Shown: in pieces, positions 25,173 through 54,028 of the stretch
Layout: each line of letters begins with the position of its first letter
How positions within the stretch are numbered: position 1 is the stretch's first letter
Assembly (NCBI GenBank): GCA_900548005.1
Contig: URIZ01000001.1
Span: forward strand, 93,756 to 157,755
Direction: 5' to 3'
From: an uncultured Eubacteriales bacterium
Lineage (GTDB): Bacteria; Bacillota; Clostridia; Christensenellales; CAG-917
DNA length: 64,000 nt
Notes under the pieces: generated by a model
What the model saw: only the letters and a program-made list of their open reading frames with translations
Databases searched by the model: none
What the model was told of the DNA's origin: nothing
Position numbers and translations under genes: made by a program

Positions 25173-26126
25173 ATGTTTGTAAAATTCTTGACAAGCGCAA
25201 TCGCGTTGAGCTCCGTGTTCCTTTACGGCTCAACGGGTGAAATCATCGTCGAAAAAGGCGGACACCTCAACCTCGGTATCCCCGGCATCATGAGCGTCAG
25301 CGCGGCAGTCAGCGCGCTTGTTGAATACGCGCTCATAAAAGGCATGGGTACAAGCGCACCGGCTTTGCTTGTGATTATACCAATCATCGTAGCATTTCTC
25401 GTGGGCGGACTTATGGGTTTGCTATACAGCTTTCTCACCGTCACGCTCAGATGCAATCAAAACGTCGTCGGTCTTGCAATGACCACTCTCGGCGTAGGAC
25501 TTGCGGGCTACTACATGACAGGCGCAGGCTCAAAGATCATGATCGTCGCAAGAGCAAGCAAATATTTCGCCACGCTTTTCGATGTGTCGGGTGGCGGCGC
25601 ATTTGCCAAAATATTCTTCTCGCACGGCATCATGGTGTATCTTGCAATCATCATCGCCGTCATCGCGCAAATCGTGCTCAGCAAGACAAGAACAGGTCTC
25701 AATCTCCGTGCCGTCGGTGAAAACCCCGCAACCGCGGATGCTGCAGGCATCAACGTTTCAAAATATAAATATGTCTCAACCGTTATCGGTTGCGGTATAT
25801 CCGGTTTGGGCGGTCTCACTTGCGTTATGGACTATATGGGCGGCAACTGGGAATACGTTCTCGAAGGCTTTGGCTGGCTCTCCATTGCACTTGTCATTTT
25901 CACGCTTTGGAAACCCGCATTGTCAATTCTCGGCTCAATCATTTTCGCCGGTTTGTACATCGCATCCTTCTACGTTGAAGGCATCTCGTTTGCGCAAATC
26001 GAACTCATCAAACTCTTGCCTTACGTTGTCACCGTTCTTGTGCTTATCATCACCAGCATGATCAACAAGCGTGAAACGCAAGCACCGGCGGCGCTGGGGC
26101 AGTCGTATTATCGCGAAGACAGATAA
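25173..26126 (+). CDS. ABC transporter permease (BMP-system, second subunit)
   Basis: Starts 2 nt after the previous stop, following AAGGGGG. Polytopic, with the motif TRTGLNLRAVGENPATADAAGINV typical of this permease family. Confidence 0.85.
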   Translation: MFVKFLTSAIALSSVFLYGSTGEIIVEKGGHLNLGIPGIMSVSAAVSALVEYALIKGMGTSAPALLVIIPIIVAFLVGGLMGLLYSFLTVTLRCNQNVVGLAMTTLGVGLAGYYMTGAGSKIMIVARASKYFATLFDVSGGGAFAKIFFSHGIMVYLAIIIAVIAQIVLSKTRTGLNLRAVGENPATADAAGINVSKYKYVSTVIGCGISGLGGLTCVMDYMGGNWEYVLEGFGWLSIALVIFTLWKPALSILGSIIFAGLYIASFYVEGISFAQIELIKLLPYVVTVLVLIITSMINKRETQAPAALGQSYYREDR

Positions 26127-26251
26127 AAACGCGCTATTGAGCGAACAACTTCGGCAGAGCCATGCTCCCGTCAACTCATGTACTAAATGTACATTAGGGT
26201 TGCCGTTAGCGTGGCTCTTTCTTGTTCTTCATCTCAATATCGCGTTTTTAT
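26123..26251 (+). repeat. Long-hairpin element, copy A (129 nt)
   Basis: Near-complete palindrome centred at 26186. Outer stem ATAAAAACGCG/CGCGTTTTTAT, then TATTGAG/CTCAATA, GAACAA/TTGTTC, AGAGCCATGCT/AGCGTGGCTCT, and apical ATGTAC-TAAAT-GTACAT. Confidence 0.85.
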
Positions 26252-26362: not shown

Positions 26363-26455
26363 GTAGGGTGGGACACCCACACCCGATTTAGAATAATCGA
26401 CAATTATCAAATTATCCGTGTCATTCTGAGCGTAGTCGAAGAATCTAGCGTAGCG
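26363..26455 (+). repeat. Modular intergenic repeat unit (GGGTGGGACACCCACACCC ... GTCATTCTGAGCGTAGTCGAAGAATC)
   Basis: About 93% identical to the reverse complement of 53712-53806. A second same-strand copy lies at 26618-26720. Confidence 0.85.
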
Positions 26456-26617: not shown

Positions 26618-26720
26618 GTAAGTGTGGGACACCCACACCTGATTGAAAATATTCTGTAGGGTGGTATAAATTATCCTTGTCATTCAGAGCGTAAGCGAAG
26701 AATCTCGTGGAAACGAAACG
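26618..26720 (+). repeat. Modular intergenic repeat unit, second copy
   Basis: GTGTGGG-ACA-CCCACAC perfect hairpin, then GTCATTCAGAGCGTAAGCGAAGAATCTCGTGGAAACGAAAC. The tail matches the reverse complement of 53712-53730. Confidence 0.8.
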
Positions 26721-49055: not shown

Positions 49056-49114
49056 GTGCACTGCAAAATTTGAATAAAACACGATAGGTGTTGCAAAATA
49101 TAGCATTTTGACGG

Positions 49115-49140
49115 AAAACGGCGAGAAATCGCCGTTTTTC
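49115..49140 (+). terminator. Rho-independent terminator
   Basis: ACGGCGA-GAAA-TCGCCGT followed by TTTT. Confidence 0.8.
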
Positions 49141-49311
49141 ATATATTTCTAGCATATATAAAACACGATACATATTTTGTATTCTGCAATAATAACACAT
49201 ATCGTGTTTTATCTTTTTGCGCTTTTGCCGATTTTGAAAATCCGCTCAAAAATCCGCCTTGCAAAAATTGCAACAATGCAACGGAGAAATGCGGCAGTTT
49301 GGCAAATTCTA

Positions 49312-49416: not shown

Positions 49417-50733
49417 ATGGCAAAAATGACAATCCGCGACGTAGACGTCAAAGGCAAAAAGTGTTTGGTGCGTTGTGACTTCAACGTGCCGATGGTTGAC
49501 GGTGTTATCACCGACGAGAACCGCATCAACGGCGCTCTTCCCACCATCCAATATCTCGTTGATCACGGCGCAAAAGTGATCCTTTGCTCGCACATGGGCA
49601 AGCCTCACAACATCTTCACGGAAGGTTTCGGCCTCAACAAGAAGGAAAAGAAGGCTGTTGAAGCTCTTCCCGAATCCGAGCAAGCGGCTGCAAAAGCAGA
49701 ATATATTGCAAAAGCTCTCAAAAACGATCAAAAGAAATTCACTCTCAAGCCCGTTGCGGACAAACTCGCCGAGCATTTCCCCGGCAAAGTCACATTTGCA
49801 ACCGATTTGGTTGGCGAAGACGCTCACAACAAAGTTGCCGCTCTCAAAGACGGCGAGATTGTTTTGCTTGAAAACACTCGTTTCTATGCAGGCGAAGAGA
49901 AGAACAGTGAAGACCTTTGCAGACAACTTGCAGACTTCTGCGACATCTATGTCAACGACGCATTCGGCACGGCTCACCGCGCTCACGCAACCACCGCAGG
50001 TATCGTTCAATACGGTTTCGCGCCCGTGGCTGTGAGCGGTTTCCTTATCGAAAAAGAGCTCAAATTCCTTGGCAATGCAATCGAACACCCCGTTCGTCCG
50101 TTCGTTGCGATTCTCGGCGGCGCAAAAGTTGCCGACAAGCTCAACGTCATCGACAATCTTCTCAACAAATGCGACACGCTCATCATCGGCGGTGGCATGG
50201 CATACACCTTCATCAAGGCTCAAGGCGGCAGCGTCGGTCTTTCTCTCGTTGACGATGAAAAGATCGATTATTGCAACACCATGCTCGCAAAGGCAAAAGA
50301 GCTCGGTAAGACCATTTATCTTCCCGTTGACACCGCAACTTGCGCAGGTTTCCCCGATCCTATCGACGCACACGTTGACATCGAATATTGCCCCAGCGAC
50401 GCAATCCCCGCCGACCGCGAAGGTCTTGACATCGGCCCCAAGACGCAAGAGCTCTTTGCTCAAGCCGTCAAGTCCGCAAAGACTGTCGTTTGGAACGGTC
50501 CTATGGGCGTTTTTGAAAATCCGCAACTCGCAGCCGGCACGAACGCCGTTGCAAAAGCCATGGCAGAAACCGACGCAACCACGATCATCGGCGGTGGCGA
50601 CTCCGCAGCAGCCGTTGCTCAACTCGGCTATGCCGACAAGATGACTCACATCTCAACCGGTGGCGGCGCATCCTTGGAATTCCTTGAAGGTAAGGTTCTG
50701 CCCGGCATCGCCTGCCTCAACGACAAGCACTAA
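49417..50733 (+). CDS. pgk: Phosphoglycerate kinase (with a ~37-aa insertion after the GKP motif)
   Basis: [28 protein letters not shown] and [14 protein letters not shown] are present. AAAGGAG ribosome-binding site. Confidence 0.95.
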
Positions 50734-50846
50734 TCGGCGAACAACTGCGTCAAATCGTTTTTTTCGCCCGTCACGTACGCAAAGTACGTTGGGCGGGTGA
50801 AAAAAACACTTTTCCTTGTTCTTCATCCGATTATCGCTGTCGTTGA
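50717..50846 (+). repeat. Long-hairpin element, copy B (130 nt), overlapping the last 5 codons of pgk
   Basis: Palindrome centred at 50781: TCAACGACA/TGTCGTTGA, TAATCGG/CCGATTA, GAACAA/TTGTTC, TTTTTTTCGCCCG/CGGGTGAAAAAAA, and ACGTAC-GCAAA-GTACGT. Confidence 0.85.
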
Positions 50847-50898
50847 CACGTGACAATATGAAGGGACAGAACATTCAATTTTCGCAATCGTTCGACAA

Positions 50899-51010
50899 GC
50901 ACTAATCGGCGAACAACTGTGTTAAATCAGTTTTTTCACTCGTCACGTACGACAAGTACGTTGGGCGAGTGAAAAAAGCAGCTTTTCCTTGTTCTTCATC
51001 AGATTAGCGC
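50899..51010 (+). repeat. Long-hairpin element, copy C (tandem to B)
   Basis: Centred at 50953: GCACTAATC/GATTAGCGC, GAACAA/TTGTTC, TTTTTTCACTCG/CGAGTGAAAAAA (12 bp perfect), and ACGTAC-GACAA-GTACGT. It is preceded by a 17-nt copy of the pgk 3' end. Confidence 0.85.
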
Positions 51011-51084
51011 GTGCGTTTTATACCTAGCGGAATAGGACGGAACAAAGGAAAAAACATATTGAAAATAAATTTTTGGAGTATATT

Positions 51085-51895: not shown

Positions 51896-53461
51896 ATGAA
51901 AAAACTTGTTTTAGTCGTTATGGACGGCGTTGGCAAGTCCAAGACGGGACTCGGCGATGCCGTAACTTTGGCAAACACTCCGACGCTTGACGCTCTTCTC
52001 AAAGAATGCCCCAACACCTACATCAAGGCGCACGGCACGGCGGTCGGTCTTCCCAGCGACGACGATATGGGCAACAGTGAAGTCGGTCACAACGCGCTCG
52101 GTTGCGGTCAAGTCTATTCGCAAGGCGCAAAACTCGTTGAAGAAGCAATCGAAAGCGGCGATATTTTCAATTCTGCCGCATGGAAAGAGCTCAAAGACAA
52201 CTGCGTTGCCAACTCGTCCACGATGCACTTCATCGGCTTGCTCTCGGACGGCAACGTGCACAGCAACATCGGTCACCTTATCGCTCTTGTCAAGGGCGCA
52301 AAGGAAAGCGGCGTAAAGCACGTTCGCATCCACGTTTTGCTTGACGGCAGAGATGTCCCCGCAACAAGTGCGCTCGTGTATGTCGATATGCTCGAATCCG
52401 CTCTCAAACAGCTCAACGACGACAACTTTGACGCATGCATCGCAAGCGGCGGTGGCAGAATGGTCATCACTATGGACAGATATTTCGCAAACTGGGATAT
52501 GGTCAAACAAGGCTTCTACACCCACGTTTACGGACATGGTAGAGGCTTTGCATCCGCAACGGACGCAATCGAAACCTACCGCGCGGAAAATCCCGGCGTC
52601 ATCGACCAAGATTTGCCCGCATTTGTCATCGTCAAGGACGGCAAGCCCGTCGGCGCAATGCACGACAACGACAGCGTCATCCTTTTCAACTTCCGCGGCG
52701 ACCGCGCAATCGAAATCTCTATGGCGTTTGACAATGACGATTTCAGCGGCTTTGATCGCGGAAATATGCCCAAAGTGCTTTACGCAGGTATGCTTCAATA
52801 CGACGGCGATTTGCATCTCCCCAAGAGATTCCTTGTCGAGCCGCCGCAAATCAAATATACGCTCAGCGAATTTCTCGTCAACCATGGCGTGAAGTCCTAC
52901 GCTGTGTCCGAAACGCAAAAGTACGGCCACGTCACGTATTTCTGGAACGGCAACCGCTCCGAAAAATTCAGTGACGCTCTCGAAGTGTGGGAAGAAGTCC
53001 CCTCCGACAAAGTGTCCTTCGATCAACGTCCGTGGATGAAGTCCGCAGAAGTCACCGACAAGGTCATCGACGCGATCGAATCCGATGAGTACGGATTTAT
53101 CCGCTGCAACTATCCAAACGGTGATATGGTCGGTCACACCGGCAATCTCGATGCCACAATCATCGGTGTCGAGGCAGTGGATCTCGCTCTTGCAAGACTC
53201 CTTCCCGTCATCAAGAAAAACGACTATGCTCTCATCGTCACCGCCGATCACGGCAACGCCGACGAGATGCTCGAAAAGAACAAAAAAGGTCAAGTTGCCG
53301 TGCGTACCGCGCACTCGCTCAACCCCGTTCCTTTCATCGTCTACAACTATGATTGCACCATCGCCGACGGCTCTTTCGGACTTTCCGATGTAGCCGCAAC
53401 GGCAGTGAAGATTATGGGGTTTGAGCCGGATGCTCACTGGGACCCGTCCATAATCCGCTAA
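51896..53461 (+). CDS. gpmI: 2,3-bisphosphoglycerate-independent phosphoglycerate mutase
   Basis: LVVMDGVG, GNSEVGHNALG, LSDGNVHS and TADHGNAD are iPGM hallmarks. Length 521 aa. Confidence 0.95.
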   Translation: MKKLVLVVMDGVGKSKTGLGDAVTLANTPTLDALLKECPNTYIKAHGTAVGLPSDDDMGNSEVGHNALGCGQVYSQGAKLVEEAIESGDIFNSAAWKELKDNCVANSSTMHFIGLLSDGNVHSNIGHLIALVKGAKESGVKHVRIHVLLDGRDVPATSALVYVDMLESALKQLNDDNFDACIASGGGRMVITMDRYFANWDMVKQGFYTHVYGHGRGFASATDAIETYRAENPGVIDQDLPAFVIVKDGKPVGAMHDNDSVILFNFRGDRAIEISMAFDNDDFSGFDRGNMPKVLYAGMLQYDGDLHLPKRFLVEPPQIKYTLSEFLVNHGVKSYAVSETQKYGHVTYFWNGNRSEKFSDALEVWEEVPSDKVSFDQRPWMKSAEVTDKVIDAIESDEYGFIRCNYPNGDMVGHTGNLDATIIGVEAVDLALARLLPVIKKNDYALIVTADHGNADEMLEKNKKGQVAVRTAHSLNPVPFIVYNYDCTIADGSFGLSDVAATAVKIMGFEPDAHWDPSIIR

Positions 53462-53574
53462 ATCGCGAATAGCATCGGCAAAGCCCCTTGCCCATCAACT
53501 CATGTACGATTTGTACATTAGGGTTGCTGTTCAAGGGGCTTTTTCTTGCTCTTCATCGATTTATCGGATTATGG
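53448..53574 (+). repeat. Long-hairpin element, copy D (127 nt), overlapping the last 4 codons of gpmI
   Basis: Palindrome centred at 53510: CCATAATCCG/CGGATTATGG, TAAATCG/CGATTTA, AAGCCCCTTG/CAAGGGGCTT, and ATGTAC-GATTT-GTACAT. Confidence 0.85.
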
Positions 53575-53635
53575 CGTATATATAATTTTTGCGTTATTTT
53601 TCTGATTGCGGATTATGGGGGCTTAAAACAATTTT

Positions 53636-53711: not shown

Positions 53712-53806
53712 GTTTCGTTTCCACGAGATTCTTCGACTACGCTCAGAATGACACGGAAAATTTGATAATTGTCGATTTTTCCAAATCGGGTGTGGGTGTC
53801 CCACCC
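53712..53806 (-). repeat. Modular intergenic repeat unit (inverted copy of 26363-26455)
   Basis: GTTTCGTTTCCACGAGATTCTTCGACTACGCTCAGAATGACACGG...CGGGTGTGGGTGTCCCACCC is the reverse complement of the 26.4-kb unit, at about 93% identity. Confidence 0.85.
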
Positions 53807-53810
53807 AACT

Positions 53811-53915
53811 GTCATGTTGAGCATAGTCGAAACATCCAGCCGCAAGGCGCATATCTTGTTTTTTCTTTTCGCTACGCTAGATTCTTCGATGCTCTCAGAA
53901 TGACACGGAATATTG
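53811..53915 (-). repeat. Second modular block (inverted counterpart of 26420-26502)
   Basis: GTCATGTTGAGCATAGTCGAAACATCCAGCCGCAAGGCGCAT...CGCTACGCTAGATTCTTCGATGCTCTCAGAATGACACGG aligns at about 80% with the reverse complement of 26420-26502. Confidence 0.75.
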
Positions 53916-53997
53916 GAATTTTACCGCTTAAAGCAAGCGATGCCGTTGCCGCGATGACGGCTTTTGTTCATTATTCATTATTTATTACTAATTAAGT

Positions 53998-54028
53998 AAA
54001 AAAACACACTCAGTTAAGTGTGTTTTTT
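53998..54028. terminator. Bidirectional terminator (serves the convergent antiporter gene)
   Basis: AAAAAAACACACT-CAGTT-AAGTGTGTTTTTT. Confidence 0.75.

Follow-up and report, generated by a model that had tools for sequence, protein, structure and literature searches.

Palindromic MITEs, such as the Correia elements of Neisseria, the enterobacterial ERIC/IRU elements and bcr1 of Bacillus cereus, are 100- to 160-bp, near end-to-end inverted repeats whose presence or absence varies between relatives. They occupy transcribed intergenic regions near stop codons, fold in the mRNA and can affect its stability; they are flanked by direct target-site duplications (TA, TTTAT) and insert in both orientations. 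Mycobacterial MIRUs are operon-oriented intergenic repeats that overlap the upstream stop codon, and they consist of 40- to 100-bp direct tandem units carrying small ORFs, not of long hairpins. In quasipalindrome template-switch correction and in parvovirus-type terminal resolution, one arm of a hairpin is copied from the other and the palindrome may extend into its flank; in terminal resolution, the boundary of the palindrome lies at a nick made a set distance away from the protein-binding site. To our knowledge, neither process has been described for a dispersed chromosomal repeat family. REPINs possess conserved ends and a variable hairpin spacer in which compensatory changes are frequent (PMC3116915).

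The window (the whole 64-kb stretch of DNA that was analyzed) contains four copies of a palindromic element, A to D, and relics of earlier ones:

26123-26251, + strand: copy A, the whole palindrome, over the stop codon (TAA, 26124-26126) of an ABC permease gene
26123-26128, + strand: distal 5' stem of copy A, ATAAAA, host stop codon and flank, as read from the sequence
26129-26140, + strand: conserved 5' arm of copy A, ACGCGCTATTGA, from the flank profile of 84 copies
26141-26233, + strand: core of copy A, from the GCGAACAAC block to the CTTGTTCTTCATC block
50718-50845, + strand (50717-50846 in the earlier note): copy B, over the pgk stop codon (TAA, 50731-50733), from the covariance model
~50889-51020, + strand: copy C, a tandem second copy after B and upstream of tpiA, with its core at 50909-51000, from the covariance model
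53448-53574, + strand: copy D, over the gpmI stop codon (TAA, 53459-53461), with its core at 53465-53557, from its inverted arms and the covariance model
53593-53618, + strand: remnants of the 3' arms of former elements, GTTATTTTTCTGATTGCG (E-type) and then GATTATGG (D-type)

The host genes are the ABC permease gene (25173-26126) for A, pgk (49417-50733) for B and gpmI (51896-53461) for D. An earlier note on this DNA had described four near-perfect, ~130-nt hairpins on the + strand, located on stop codons. Inverted-repeat and covariance-model searches bear this out for A, B and D, each of which covers the TAA of its gene; copy C also exists, as the tandem second copy, but is longer than the 50899-51010 assigned to it. 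The covariance-model scan, proposed in that note as a check, recovered the four copies and no others within the 64 kb. CTTGYTCTTCATC occurs exactly four times in the window and the apex motif GTAC-N5-GTACRTTRGG has exactly four + strand matches. When two mismatches are allowed, the apex motif matches eight times, compared to 0.33 expected by chance, and the other four of these relaxed matches are minus-strand shadows of the same palindromic apices. Copies A, B, C and D each form one long hairpin, with RNA minimum free energies of -63, -57, -42 and -65 kcal/mol and z-scores against dinucleotide shuffles of -8.5, -7.2, -3.9 and -8.7, respectively. Copy A scores 131.7 bits with the covariance model, and its inverted arms (26123-26141 and 26233-26251) are 95% complementary. 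Its distal stem ATAAAA is mirrored as TTTTAT (26246-26251), and its conserved 5' arm pairs with TCAATATCGCGT (26234-26245), with a conserved C/T mismatch between the arms. Its core runs from the GCGAACAAC block through an internal loop, a variable helix, an inner helix and the GTAC-N5-GTAC apex to the CTTGTTCTTCATC block, which has an AT bulge.

The family extends far beyond the window. A genome scan returned at least 118 loci, of which at least about 93 are true copies, in at least 40 species-level assemblies. The hosts are mostly uncultured gut Clostridia, with some Verrucomicrobiota among the matches listed. Several assemblies contributed 3 to 5 loci each among the matches listed, the 64-kb window alone holds 4 copies, and tandem clusters were seen; the copy number per genome is probably high. 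In the sub-family of L091 and L096, the upstream proteins at these two loci are 96.7% identical, and the three loci of the sub-family are labelled Flexilinea, Barnesiella and Treponemataceae. Such identity under discordant labels indicates that these MAG labels are unreliable, and spread across phyla is therefore partly discounted. The variants from Opitutales/Verrucomicrobia, and one from a deltaproteobacterium, seem to be genuine. Contigs break off inside the element at three loci (L127, L134 and L135). As the earlier note anticipated, no Rfam family reaches its threshold: at gathering thresholds, the sole match in the whole window is a tRNA, and at E values up to 10 the best matches to A and D score 10 to 25 bits against thresholds of 35 to 211. 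Plasmids and phages yielded no matching sequence, and viral contigs yielded no convincing copy, two off-length pattern matches being taken as chance. The conserved 13-mer retrieved only unrelated eukaryotic papers from the literature, and keyword searches found no description of stop-codon-overlapping palindromic repeats in Firmicutes.

Each unit has a core of ~92 nt (91 to 95 nt) bounded by the blocks GCGAAYARC and YCTTGYTCTTCATC, which pair imperfectly, so that an asymmetric internal loop, a Y·C mismatch and an AT bulge remain. The core further comprises two variable helices and a CAYGTAC-N5-GTACRT apex; it is flanked on each side by a conserved arm of ~10 to 12 bp (GCGCTATTGA / TCAATATCGC), with a C/T mismatch. 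Approximately 40 nt of primary sequence are conserved across at least 93 copies, and the conserved bulges and mismatches persist within an otherwise perfect palindrome. The terminal inverted repeat typical of a MITE is present, as the whole element is an inverted repeat with sharp ends at ±17. In the flank profile of 84 copies, the consensus T at +13 to +16 has frequencies of 90, 69, 61 and 54%; this T4-5 run adjoins a GC-rich stem segment and is paired with an upstream A-tract. The 3' block resembles the 1492 region of 16S rRNA, which we take to be a coincidence. A coding function was considered and rejected: the reverse strand starts ATGAAGAACAAG (MKNK...), but stops and indels interrupt this frame within the elements. 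The same start explains ~25 false matches at Pseudomonas gene starts.

The outer stem, beyond the core, is constant at 17 to 18 bp, with lengths falling sharply within 16 to 19 bp across copies and flank information ceasing at ±17 in the profile of 84 copies. Its 3' side mirrors the stop codon and last coding bases of the host gene itself. The bases 5' of the arm recur 3' of the element as their reverse complement, and the flank duplication is thus inverted, not direct. The mirrored coding bases offset the position of the stop, keeping the total at 17.3 to 18.3 bp, and all 14 copies that have the stop at -15 and are fully mirrored include at least two mirrored coding bases. In copy B (core 50737-50827), the host codons CAACGACA (50718-50725) are mirrored as GTCGTTG (50839-50845), and in copy D the distal CCATA (53448-53452) is mirrored as TATGG (53570-53574). 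The mirrored pgk codons are native host sequence, the pgk end AACGACAAATAA being present in element-free relatives (L128 and L130), and the mirrored Ala codon of fba is shared by 118 of 120 homologues. The distal arm TAAAAAC-NN of the largest sub-family comes after 11 or more different genes, so that in those copies the element itself brings part of the "mirrored flank". No direct target-site duplication is present around the copies. Duplication of TA or TAA was rejected as a general rule, as no consistent base follows the mirrored stop; a TA duplication is indistinguishable from extension of the palindrome and fails in L131 and L050.

Position and orientation relative to genes are equally regular. 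In 69 of 93 copies, an ORF of 80 codons or more on the same strand ends in the 5' arm, with a mode at -15 to -18 from the core start, and none of the 93 is attached to a gene by its 3' arm only. The upstream genes include pgk, gpmI, fba, thrS, ABC transporter genes and ribosomal-protein genes, all in conserved gene order. That replication and not the gene dictates the orientation seems unlikely: assuming the usual minority of head-on genes, zero 3'-only attachments among ~70 anchored copies were judged hard to reconcile with it. Opposite-strand copies occur only in L080 and L105 and are uninformative in this respect.

Some relatives lack the element at a given gene end, and others hold different variants there. 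The pgk and gpmI ends are empty in five loci (L128, L129, L130, L137 and L139), an independent insertion occupies the pgk end in L131, and an ortholog of copy B is found in a species at 86% nucleotide identity (L058). Copy A is present in all five strains examined, with only 3 SNPs, and comparison of strains revealed no recent insertion paired with an empty site. Strains at 98% identity differ by replacement (D versus E), by tandem gain or loss (B/C) and by relics. A different element, E, occupies the copy D site in L004 and L006, and the relic 3' arms in the window were assigned by comparison with L004, whose intact E ends ...GTTATTTTTTTGATTGCG. L003 has a single B/C-recombinant copy at the B/C site; in the window, the core of copy C follows a repeated pgk end (CGACAAGCACTAATCG, 50893-50908). 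Long-term retention of copies could reflect a host function.

The earlier note interpreted the exchange of helices between copies as compensatory change, implying selection on a folded RNA or single-stranded DNA form. The substitutions that it quoted for A, B and D are correct, and the family of covarying helices is genuine: across 93 copies, double (compensatory) changes are found at 37 of 43 pairs, and paired cells amount to 92.4%, compared to 66% in shuffles and ~41% with slid partners. The importance of single-strand folding is upheld by the retention of bulges and mismatches, but selection on a folded RNA is not. Among 3,996 cells, 3,628 are Watson-Crick pairs, 64 are G·T and 96 are A·C, so that the frequency of wobble pairs does not exceed that of A·C mismatches. 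Double changes account for 1,025 cells and one-sided changes, which are 16 times rarer, for 64; the AAC/GTT triplet alternates with AGC/GCT in covarying fashion. With RNA parameters, the antisense strand folds more stably in 72 of 93 copies, and with DNA parameters it does so in 86 of 93. Further, the inner sequence is unlinked to the locus: inner sequences that are 90 to 100% identical follow non-homologous genes (100% for L042 and L082), while those at orthologous sites are only 0.56 to 0.79 identical. The rarity of wobble pairs and of one-sided changes, the stability of the antisense strand and the non-descent of the inner sequence indicate that much of the covariation lies between sub-lineages of a DNA palindrome. 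These observations fit a palindrome that moves or is converted and whose arms are kept complementary at the DNA level, and an RNA inherited with its locus does not fit. The size of the family and the mirroring of host sequence in the outer stem had escaped the earlier note.

The copies are probably a non-autonomous palindromic DNA repeat resembling REP/REPIN elements or palindromic MITEs. Palindromic DNA alone leaves the strict sense orientation unexplained, which requires either selection at the RNA level or targeting that reads gene direction. Together with the stop codon within the 5' arm, this orientation favors an alternative in which the selected entity is a cis-acting 3'-UTR RNA module (an exonuclease barrier or stabilizer, an RNase III site or a terminator), the spread of the repeat is secondary, and the stop at the stem base couples translation termination to stem opening. 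The very stable folds, the retention of copies at orthologous housekeeping gene ends in different species (pgk, gpmI, fba, thrS and ribosomal-protein operons) and the consensus T4-5 run (+13 to +16) beside a GC-rich stem segment are consistent with such a module, but the pairing census and antisense stability given above are not, nor is the wholesale replacement of inner helices at orthologous sites. The same gene ends are, moreover, element-free in close relatives, a U-tract is missing from B, C and D, and canonical gpmI terminators lie ~400 to 450 nt downstream of D. We consider an RNA module as the selected entity possible but rather unlikely. Ordinary intrinsic terminators or chance palindromes, arisen independently at each gene end, would account for positions at the ends of genes and operons and for the T-run after A; this run is, as the earlier note stated, confined to A, and B, C and D have none. 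That note held that the elements are not ordinary terminators, in agreement with a simple terminator scan, by which no copy in the window qualifies as a whole-element terminator. Motifs far more frequent than in shuffled sequence and the ~40 nt of primary sequence common to at least 93 copies in at least 40 assemblies leave this explanation a negligible probability, and the family alignment rules it out.

A site at which a tyrosine recombinase acts on a folded single strand, as at integron attC or at the attP(+) hairpin of CTX phage, would offer another reason for retaining structure without sequence. The 7-bp GAAYARC/GYTCTTC duplex with its unpaired spacer would then be the putative binding box and the bottom strand the substrate. 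attC sites are imperfect palindromes of 57 to 141 nt that are recognized as folded single strands, and the elements share with them a comparable size (core, 91 to 95 nt), a position and orientation directly after the stop of a co-oriented ORF, conserved extrahelical bases, an unpaired internal loop or spacer and a better-folding bottom strand; the inner segment is also swapped between copies while the arms stay. Nevertheless, the attC core sites RYYYAAC and GTTRRRY are absent: the blocks GAAYARC and GYTCTTC are internal and flanked by an additional 17 to 18 bp of stem, and AAC/GTT is not fixed, given the covarying AGC/GCT variants. The neighbors are core housekeeping genes in conserved synteny rather than a promoterless cassette array, and the sampled loci contain no integrase gene. 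We judge a recombination site of this kind to be very improbable.

If the copies are a palindromic DNA repeat, the element may spread and be homogenized as a folded single DNA strand, with its 3' arm made or corrected on the template of the 5' arm and upstream flank. Candidate routes are fold-back priming, quasipalindrome template switching and nicking a set distance away from the core, in the manner of hairpin terminal resolution; each of the three would account for the apparent covariation as well as for the inverted duplication of the flank. Bulges and mismatches that are conserved may be recognition features of a putative mobilizing protein. Once settled, the hairpin is predicted to serve as an mRNA 3' hairpin, probably a barrier or stabilizer and, where a T-tract follows, a terminator; this role could account for the persistence of the sense orientation only. 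We tentatively suggest, as a scheme that is doubtful in its entirety, that a hairpin-form single strand integrates a few bases past the stop, always in sense, and that the stem is then finished by synthesis on the folded-back strand or by nicking at a constant 17 to 18 bp from a protein-bound core. Completion would generate the inverted duplication of ~5 to 8 bp of upstream flank, copies would be able to exchange the inner hairpin at the conserved blocks, and the process would represent an undescribed form of DNA mobility. Clustering of ORFs from 82 loci revealed no transposase or recombinase near the copies and no recurrent enzyme cluster, and no parent insertion sequence with matching ends was seen in the sampled loci. 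IS200 and IS608 TnpA queries gave no tblastn match to a Y1 transposase in ~1.3 Mb of sampled loci, a weak test, as the queries were approximate.

The element alters the last codons of housekeeping proteins, and the family interrupts assemblies. A DNA palindrome family that yields spectacular "covariation" can also pass for a structured RNA, which is a concrete warning for RNA motif discovery pipelines. REPIN-like persistent repeats would extend beyond Proteobacteria to uncultured gut Clostridia, where their insertion would seem to follow another logic. Two features are unusual among such repeats, the strict sense orientation over stop codons and the ruler-like 17- to 18-bp stem that mirrors the host flank. 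If both stem from insertion chemistry, they point to a mechanism new to bacterial mobile DNA; if both stem from selection, they point to a widespread module at mRNA 3' ends.

Comparison with described systems places the family near several of them. The elements resemble MIRUs in operon orientation and in overlapping the upstream stop, but only the elements described here are long hairpins. Palindromic MITEs are similar in size, near end-to-end inverted repetition, placement in transcribed intergenic sequence near stop codons, capacity to fold in mRNA and patchy presence among relatives. In Correia, ERIC and bcr1 elements, however, the flank is duplicated directly, whereas here the duplication is inverted; the sense orientation is also exclusive here, and no parent insertion sequence with matching ends was seen in the loci sampled. 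A link between stem completion and template-switch correction or hairpin terminal resolution may be drawn by inference only. REP/REPIN elements of Pseudomonas and enterobacteria, which are mobilized by RAYTs (IS200/IS605-type Y1 HUH transposases) whose single-copy gene the repeats flank, are likewise ~100-nt palindromic extragenic repeats of high copy number, as inferred here, with two conserved end regions around a variable hairpin that undergoes compensatory changes (PMC3116915). Further similarities are long vertical persistence at fixed sites downstream of genes, tandem clusters and master-sequence behavior, with identical copies at unrelated loci. Unlike REP/REPIN elements, the present family showed no RAYT near its copies in the sampled loci, shares no sequence similarity with them and inhabits uncultured Clostridia and some Verrucomicrobiota. 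It is further distinguished by strict sense orientation, a stop codon in the stem and a constant 17- to 18-bp outer stem carrying an inverted copy of the host flank.

All four copies of the element lie on the + strand, as the earlier note had placed them, and its claim that the hairpins sit on stop codons holds for A, B and D:

Copy A, 26123-26251, + strand: long hairpin, with the TAA of an ABC-transporter permease gene (25173-26126) within the 5′ arm.
Copy B, 50717-50846, + strand: long hairpin, with the TAA of the phosphoglycerate kinase gene (pgk, 49417-50733) within the 5′ arm.
Copy C, about 50889-51020 by its extent here, + strand: tandem second copy, upstream of tpiA.
Copy D, 53448-53574, + strand: the TAA of the 2,3-bisphosphoglycerate-independent phosphoglycerate mutase gene (gpmI, 51896-53461) lies within the 5′ arm.

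Each forms one long hairpin, with RNA energies for A, B, C and D of -63, -57, -42 and -65 kcal/mol and fold z-scores against dinucleotide shuffles of -8.5, -7.2, -3.9 and -8.7, respectively. The 3′ block CTTGYTCTTCATC and, on the + strand, the apex motif GTAC-N5-GTACRTTRGG each occur exactly four times in the window; with ≤2 mismatches, the apex motif gave eight matches versus 0.33 expected, four of them minus-strand shadows of the + strand apices, and a covariance model found no further copies within the 64 kb. Relic 3′ arms are present at 53593-53618. The PGK encoded in the window has 438 aa, of which residues 6 to 426 span the 379-position Pfam model, and it therefore carries ∼40 residues extra compared to the model.

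The window elements are not canonical terminators, in agreement with the earlier note: U-tracts are missing from B, C and D, and gpmI terminators lie downstream at 53942-54028. In the family consensus, the stem does end in a short T-tract. A run of TTCATTA-type heptamers (53966-53987) lies upstream of a bidirectional terminator and is longer in strain L006 (14740-14790; ATTCATTATTCATTATTCATTATT...).

The family consists of abundant palindromic repeats that are absent from the catalogues searched. Scanning one genome per species with the pattern GCGAAYARC-N55-85-CTTGYTCTTCATC, which partly forces the invariance of the two conserved blocks, returned at least 118 loci; among the matches listed, at least 93 are true copies, from at least 40 assemblies. 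About 25 matches were rejected as 81-nt stretches at Pseudomonas-type gene starts (e.g., L007, L010 and L014), which are found because the reverse strand of the pattern reads ATGAAGAACAAG (MKNK...), the start of a conserved opposite-strand gene. The covariance model also recovers relatives with changed blocks (CTCGTTCTTCATC and TTTCGCGYTRTKCATC) and other 5′ halves. A sister family retains the inner hairpin with a different 5′ half (GCGTAACAATCGCTATTCCGTCACTKCGTTCCTTAY) and 3′ block (TTTCGCGTYRTKCATC), at L017:1781-1846, L108:3807-3872 and L002:14273-14399.

Hosts, among the matches listed, are mostly uncultured gut Clostridia, with labels including Christensenella sp. UBA..., Clostridiales bacterium UMGS..., Firmicutes bacterium CAG:475 and Candidatus Limadaptatus (classed in Clostridia); separate variants occur in Opitutales/Verrucomicrobia MAGs and one deltaproteobacterial MAG. 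The upstream proteins of L091 and L096 are 96.7% identical, and L021 carries the same element subfamily; these subfamily loci are labeled Flexilinea, Barnesiella and Treponemataceae, and these “cleanbin” MAGs plainly have unreliable taxonomic labels. Rfam contains nothing similar, as the earlier note had supposed, nor do plasmids or phages; a viral-contig scan gave two pattern matches, both off-length, and the literature searched contains no description of a similar element.

Sense attachment to stop codons is strict. A same-strand open reading frame (ORF) of ≥80 codons ends within the 5′ arm in 69 of the 93 copies (TAA in 48, TGA in 15 and TAG in 6), most often with the stop 15 to 18 nt upstream of the core (the central ∼92 nt) and in minor groups at -2, -3, -6 and -10, within the conserved arm; the other copies are mostly second members of tandems. 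Convergent ORFs of ≥80 codons accompany 10 copies. Where the convergent genes are clear (L021, L091 and L105), their stops lie beyond the palindrome and the copies are attached through the 5′ arm as well, and none of the 93 copies is attached by the 3′ arm alone. Recurrent upstream genes are housekeeping genes (pgk, gpmI, fba, thrS and ribosomal-protein operons), and a ∼990-aa ABC protein recurs upstream in 12 loci. In same-synteny relatives (L128, L129, L130, L137 and L139), pgk or gpmI ends carry no element, only short hairpins, and at the pgk end of L131 there is an insertion of independent origin whose arms differ (AACGAC TAA AAAGCGCGCTATTTT...); the element was therefore gained at gene ends and is not ancestral there.

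The outer stem is constant in length, and part of it is host flank copied in inverted orientation. Beyond the core it extends sharply for 16 to 19 bp (mode, 17), and positional information drops to background at -17 and +17. Conservation covers the inner 10 bp of the arms (GCGCTATTGA / TCAATATCGC), where most copies have a C/T mismatch. The distal portion contains the stop codon, whose exact reverse complement (TTA or TCA) is present in the 3′ arm of 38 of 55 canonical copies; no direct repeat follows the mirrored stop codon. The closer the stop is to the core, the more upstream coding bases are mirrored (means of 3.67, 2.64, 1.3, 0.86 and 0.25 for stops at -14, -15, -16, -17 and -18, respectively), and the total stem stays at 17.3 to 18.3 bp. 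All 14 fully mirrored copies with the stop at -15 have at least two coding bases copied, for which chance is 1/16 per copy. The mirrored bases are native host sequence: the pgk codons at B (CAACGACA) are found in element-free orthologues, and their complement GTCGTTG is confined to element-bearing sites. At the end of fba, the mirrored copy in each of two species matches that species' own variant (GCC TAA to TTAGG and GCA TAA to TTATGC), the alanine concerned being the conserved C terminus in 118 of 120 homologues. In the largest subfamily, however, the distal arm TAAAAAC-NN recurs behind 11 or more different genes, which means that part of this arm travels with the element.

The earlier note read the compensatory changes as selection on a folded RNA or single-stranded DNA. 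The covariation is real yet not of RNA type. In the 93-copy alignment, 37 of 43 pairs predicted by RNAalifold show double changes; 92.4% of cells are paired, versus 66% after column shuffles and ∼41% with partners slid, and both sides have changed in 1,025 cells, one-sided changes being 16 times rarer than double ones. The census comprises 3,628 Watson-Crick pairs, 64 G·T and 96 A·C, such that wobble is rarer than the nonpairing transition mismatch, and complementarity is thus maintained at the DNA level. With RNA parameters the antisense fold is more stable than the sense fold in 72 of 93 copies, and with DNA parameters in 86 of 93, the difference being 4 to 5 kcal/mol. Further, inner sequence is not inherited with the locus: the closest matches between genomes (90 to 100% identical) mostly follow nonhomologous genes, and copies behind orthologous genes (proteins 94 to 99% identical) show only 56 to 79% identity in their inner parts. 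Between B and its UMGS1331 orthologue, flanks are 86% identical and outer arms conserved, with inner parts just 56% identical. The few wobbles and one-sided changes, stabler antisense fold and locus-independent inner sequence argue against selection on sense RNA. Tandem arrays are frequent, some with identical cores, and the family behaves as a DNA palindrome population that has master sequences and undergoes conversion or replacement.

Strain comparison was based on six loci at ∼98% nucleotide identity; the identical pgk protein is encoded by many human-gut metagenome contigs and one MAG (GCA_964315185.1), near genes including SpoVT and a DnaB_2/DnaI-type helicase loader, which point to a Firmicute. 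Inner modules are exchangeable. The pgk-tpiA gap has a single B/C-recombinant copy in one strain and, in two, a B/C chimera with a different spacer behind it. In two strains the element behind gpmI is a different one, E, which comes with an altered C terminus (AIIK* versus SIIR*); behind E in L004 lies a D copy that has lost its core. Copy A is fixed in five strains, with 3 single-nucleotide polymorphisms. Strains with an entirely different pgk-tpiA spacer (L002/L005:11433-11690) have a diverged hairpin bounded by AATCGGCGAAC and TTTCATCCGATT, and this region resembles a hot spot of recombination. Several metagenome contigs (L127, L134 and L135) terminate within copy A, and the repeat breaks short-read assemblies.

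Other repeats adjoin or resemble these elements. A second, unrelated intergenic family of ∼85 to 95 nt adjoins A and D (53726-53809 [+], 26363-26446 [-], 26624-26719 [-] and 53879-53917), with two copies 95% identical, a palindrome GGGTGTGGGTGTCCCACCC and the motif ...GAATGACACGG. At 49074-49212, 19-nt inverted arms (ATAAAACACGATAGGTGTT / AACACATATCGTGTTTTAT, 95% complementary) surround the SpoU-methylase terminator hairpin (49113-49140), with a direct copy of the arm at 49158-49170. In another species (L138:2018-2580), a different long palindrome, GGGCGAGGGCACA...TGTGCCCTCGC, follows the pgk stop, with ∼100-nt tandem repeats (...GTGCCCTCGCTTTCAAG...) behind it; only its apex, GTCACGTACG-TTTT-AGTACGCTC, is in common with the hairpin family, which suggests that the apex is a shared module.

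We propose that the element propagates and is homogenized as a folded single strand, in which the 5′ arm and flank would serve as the source for making or correcting the 3′ arm. This could occur by fold-back priming, by quasipalindrome template switching or by nicking at a set distance from a putative protein on the bulged conserved core, which may recognize the retained bulges and mismatches. The sense-only orientation most plausibly reflects a putative mRNA role of the hairpin or a putative targeting step that reads gene direction. That inverted flank duplication and stop-codon targeting reflect an undescribed insertion mechanism is a tentative and rather unlikely proposition.

Among known systems, integron attC sites are distinguished by core sites and a cassette context, both of which this family lacks, and MITEs by a hallmark direct target duplication, also lacking here. 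Membership in the REPIN-RAYT system cannot be claimed, because no RAYT gene was found in the sampled loci around the copies. REP/REPIN elements and palindromic MITEs are nevertheless the most similar in their working, and REPINs are described as having conserved ends around a variable hairpin in which compensatory changes are common (PMC3116915).
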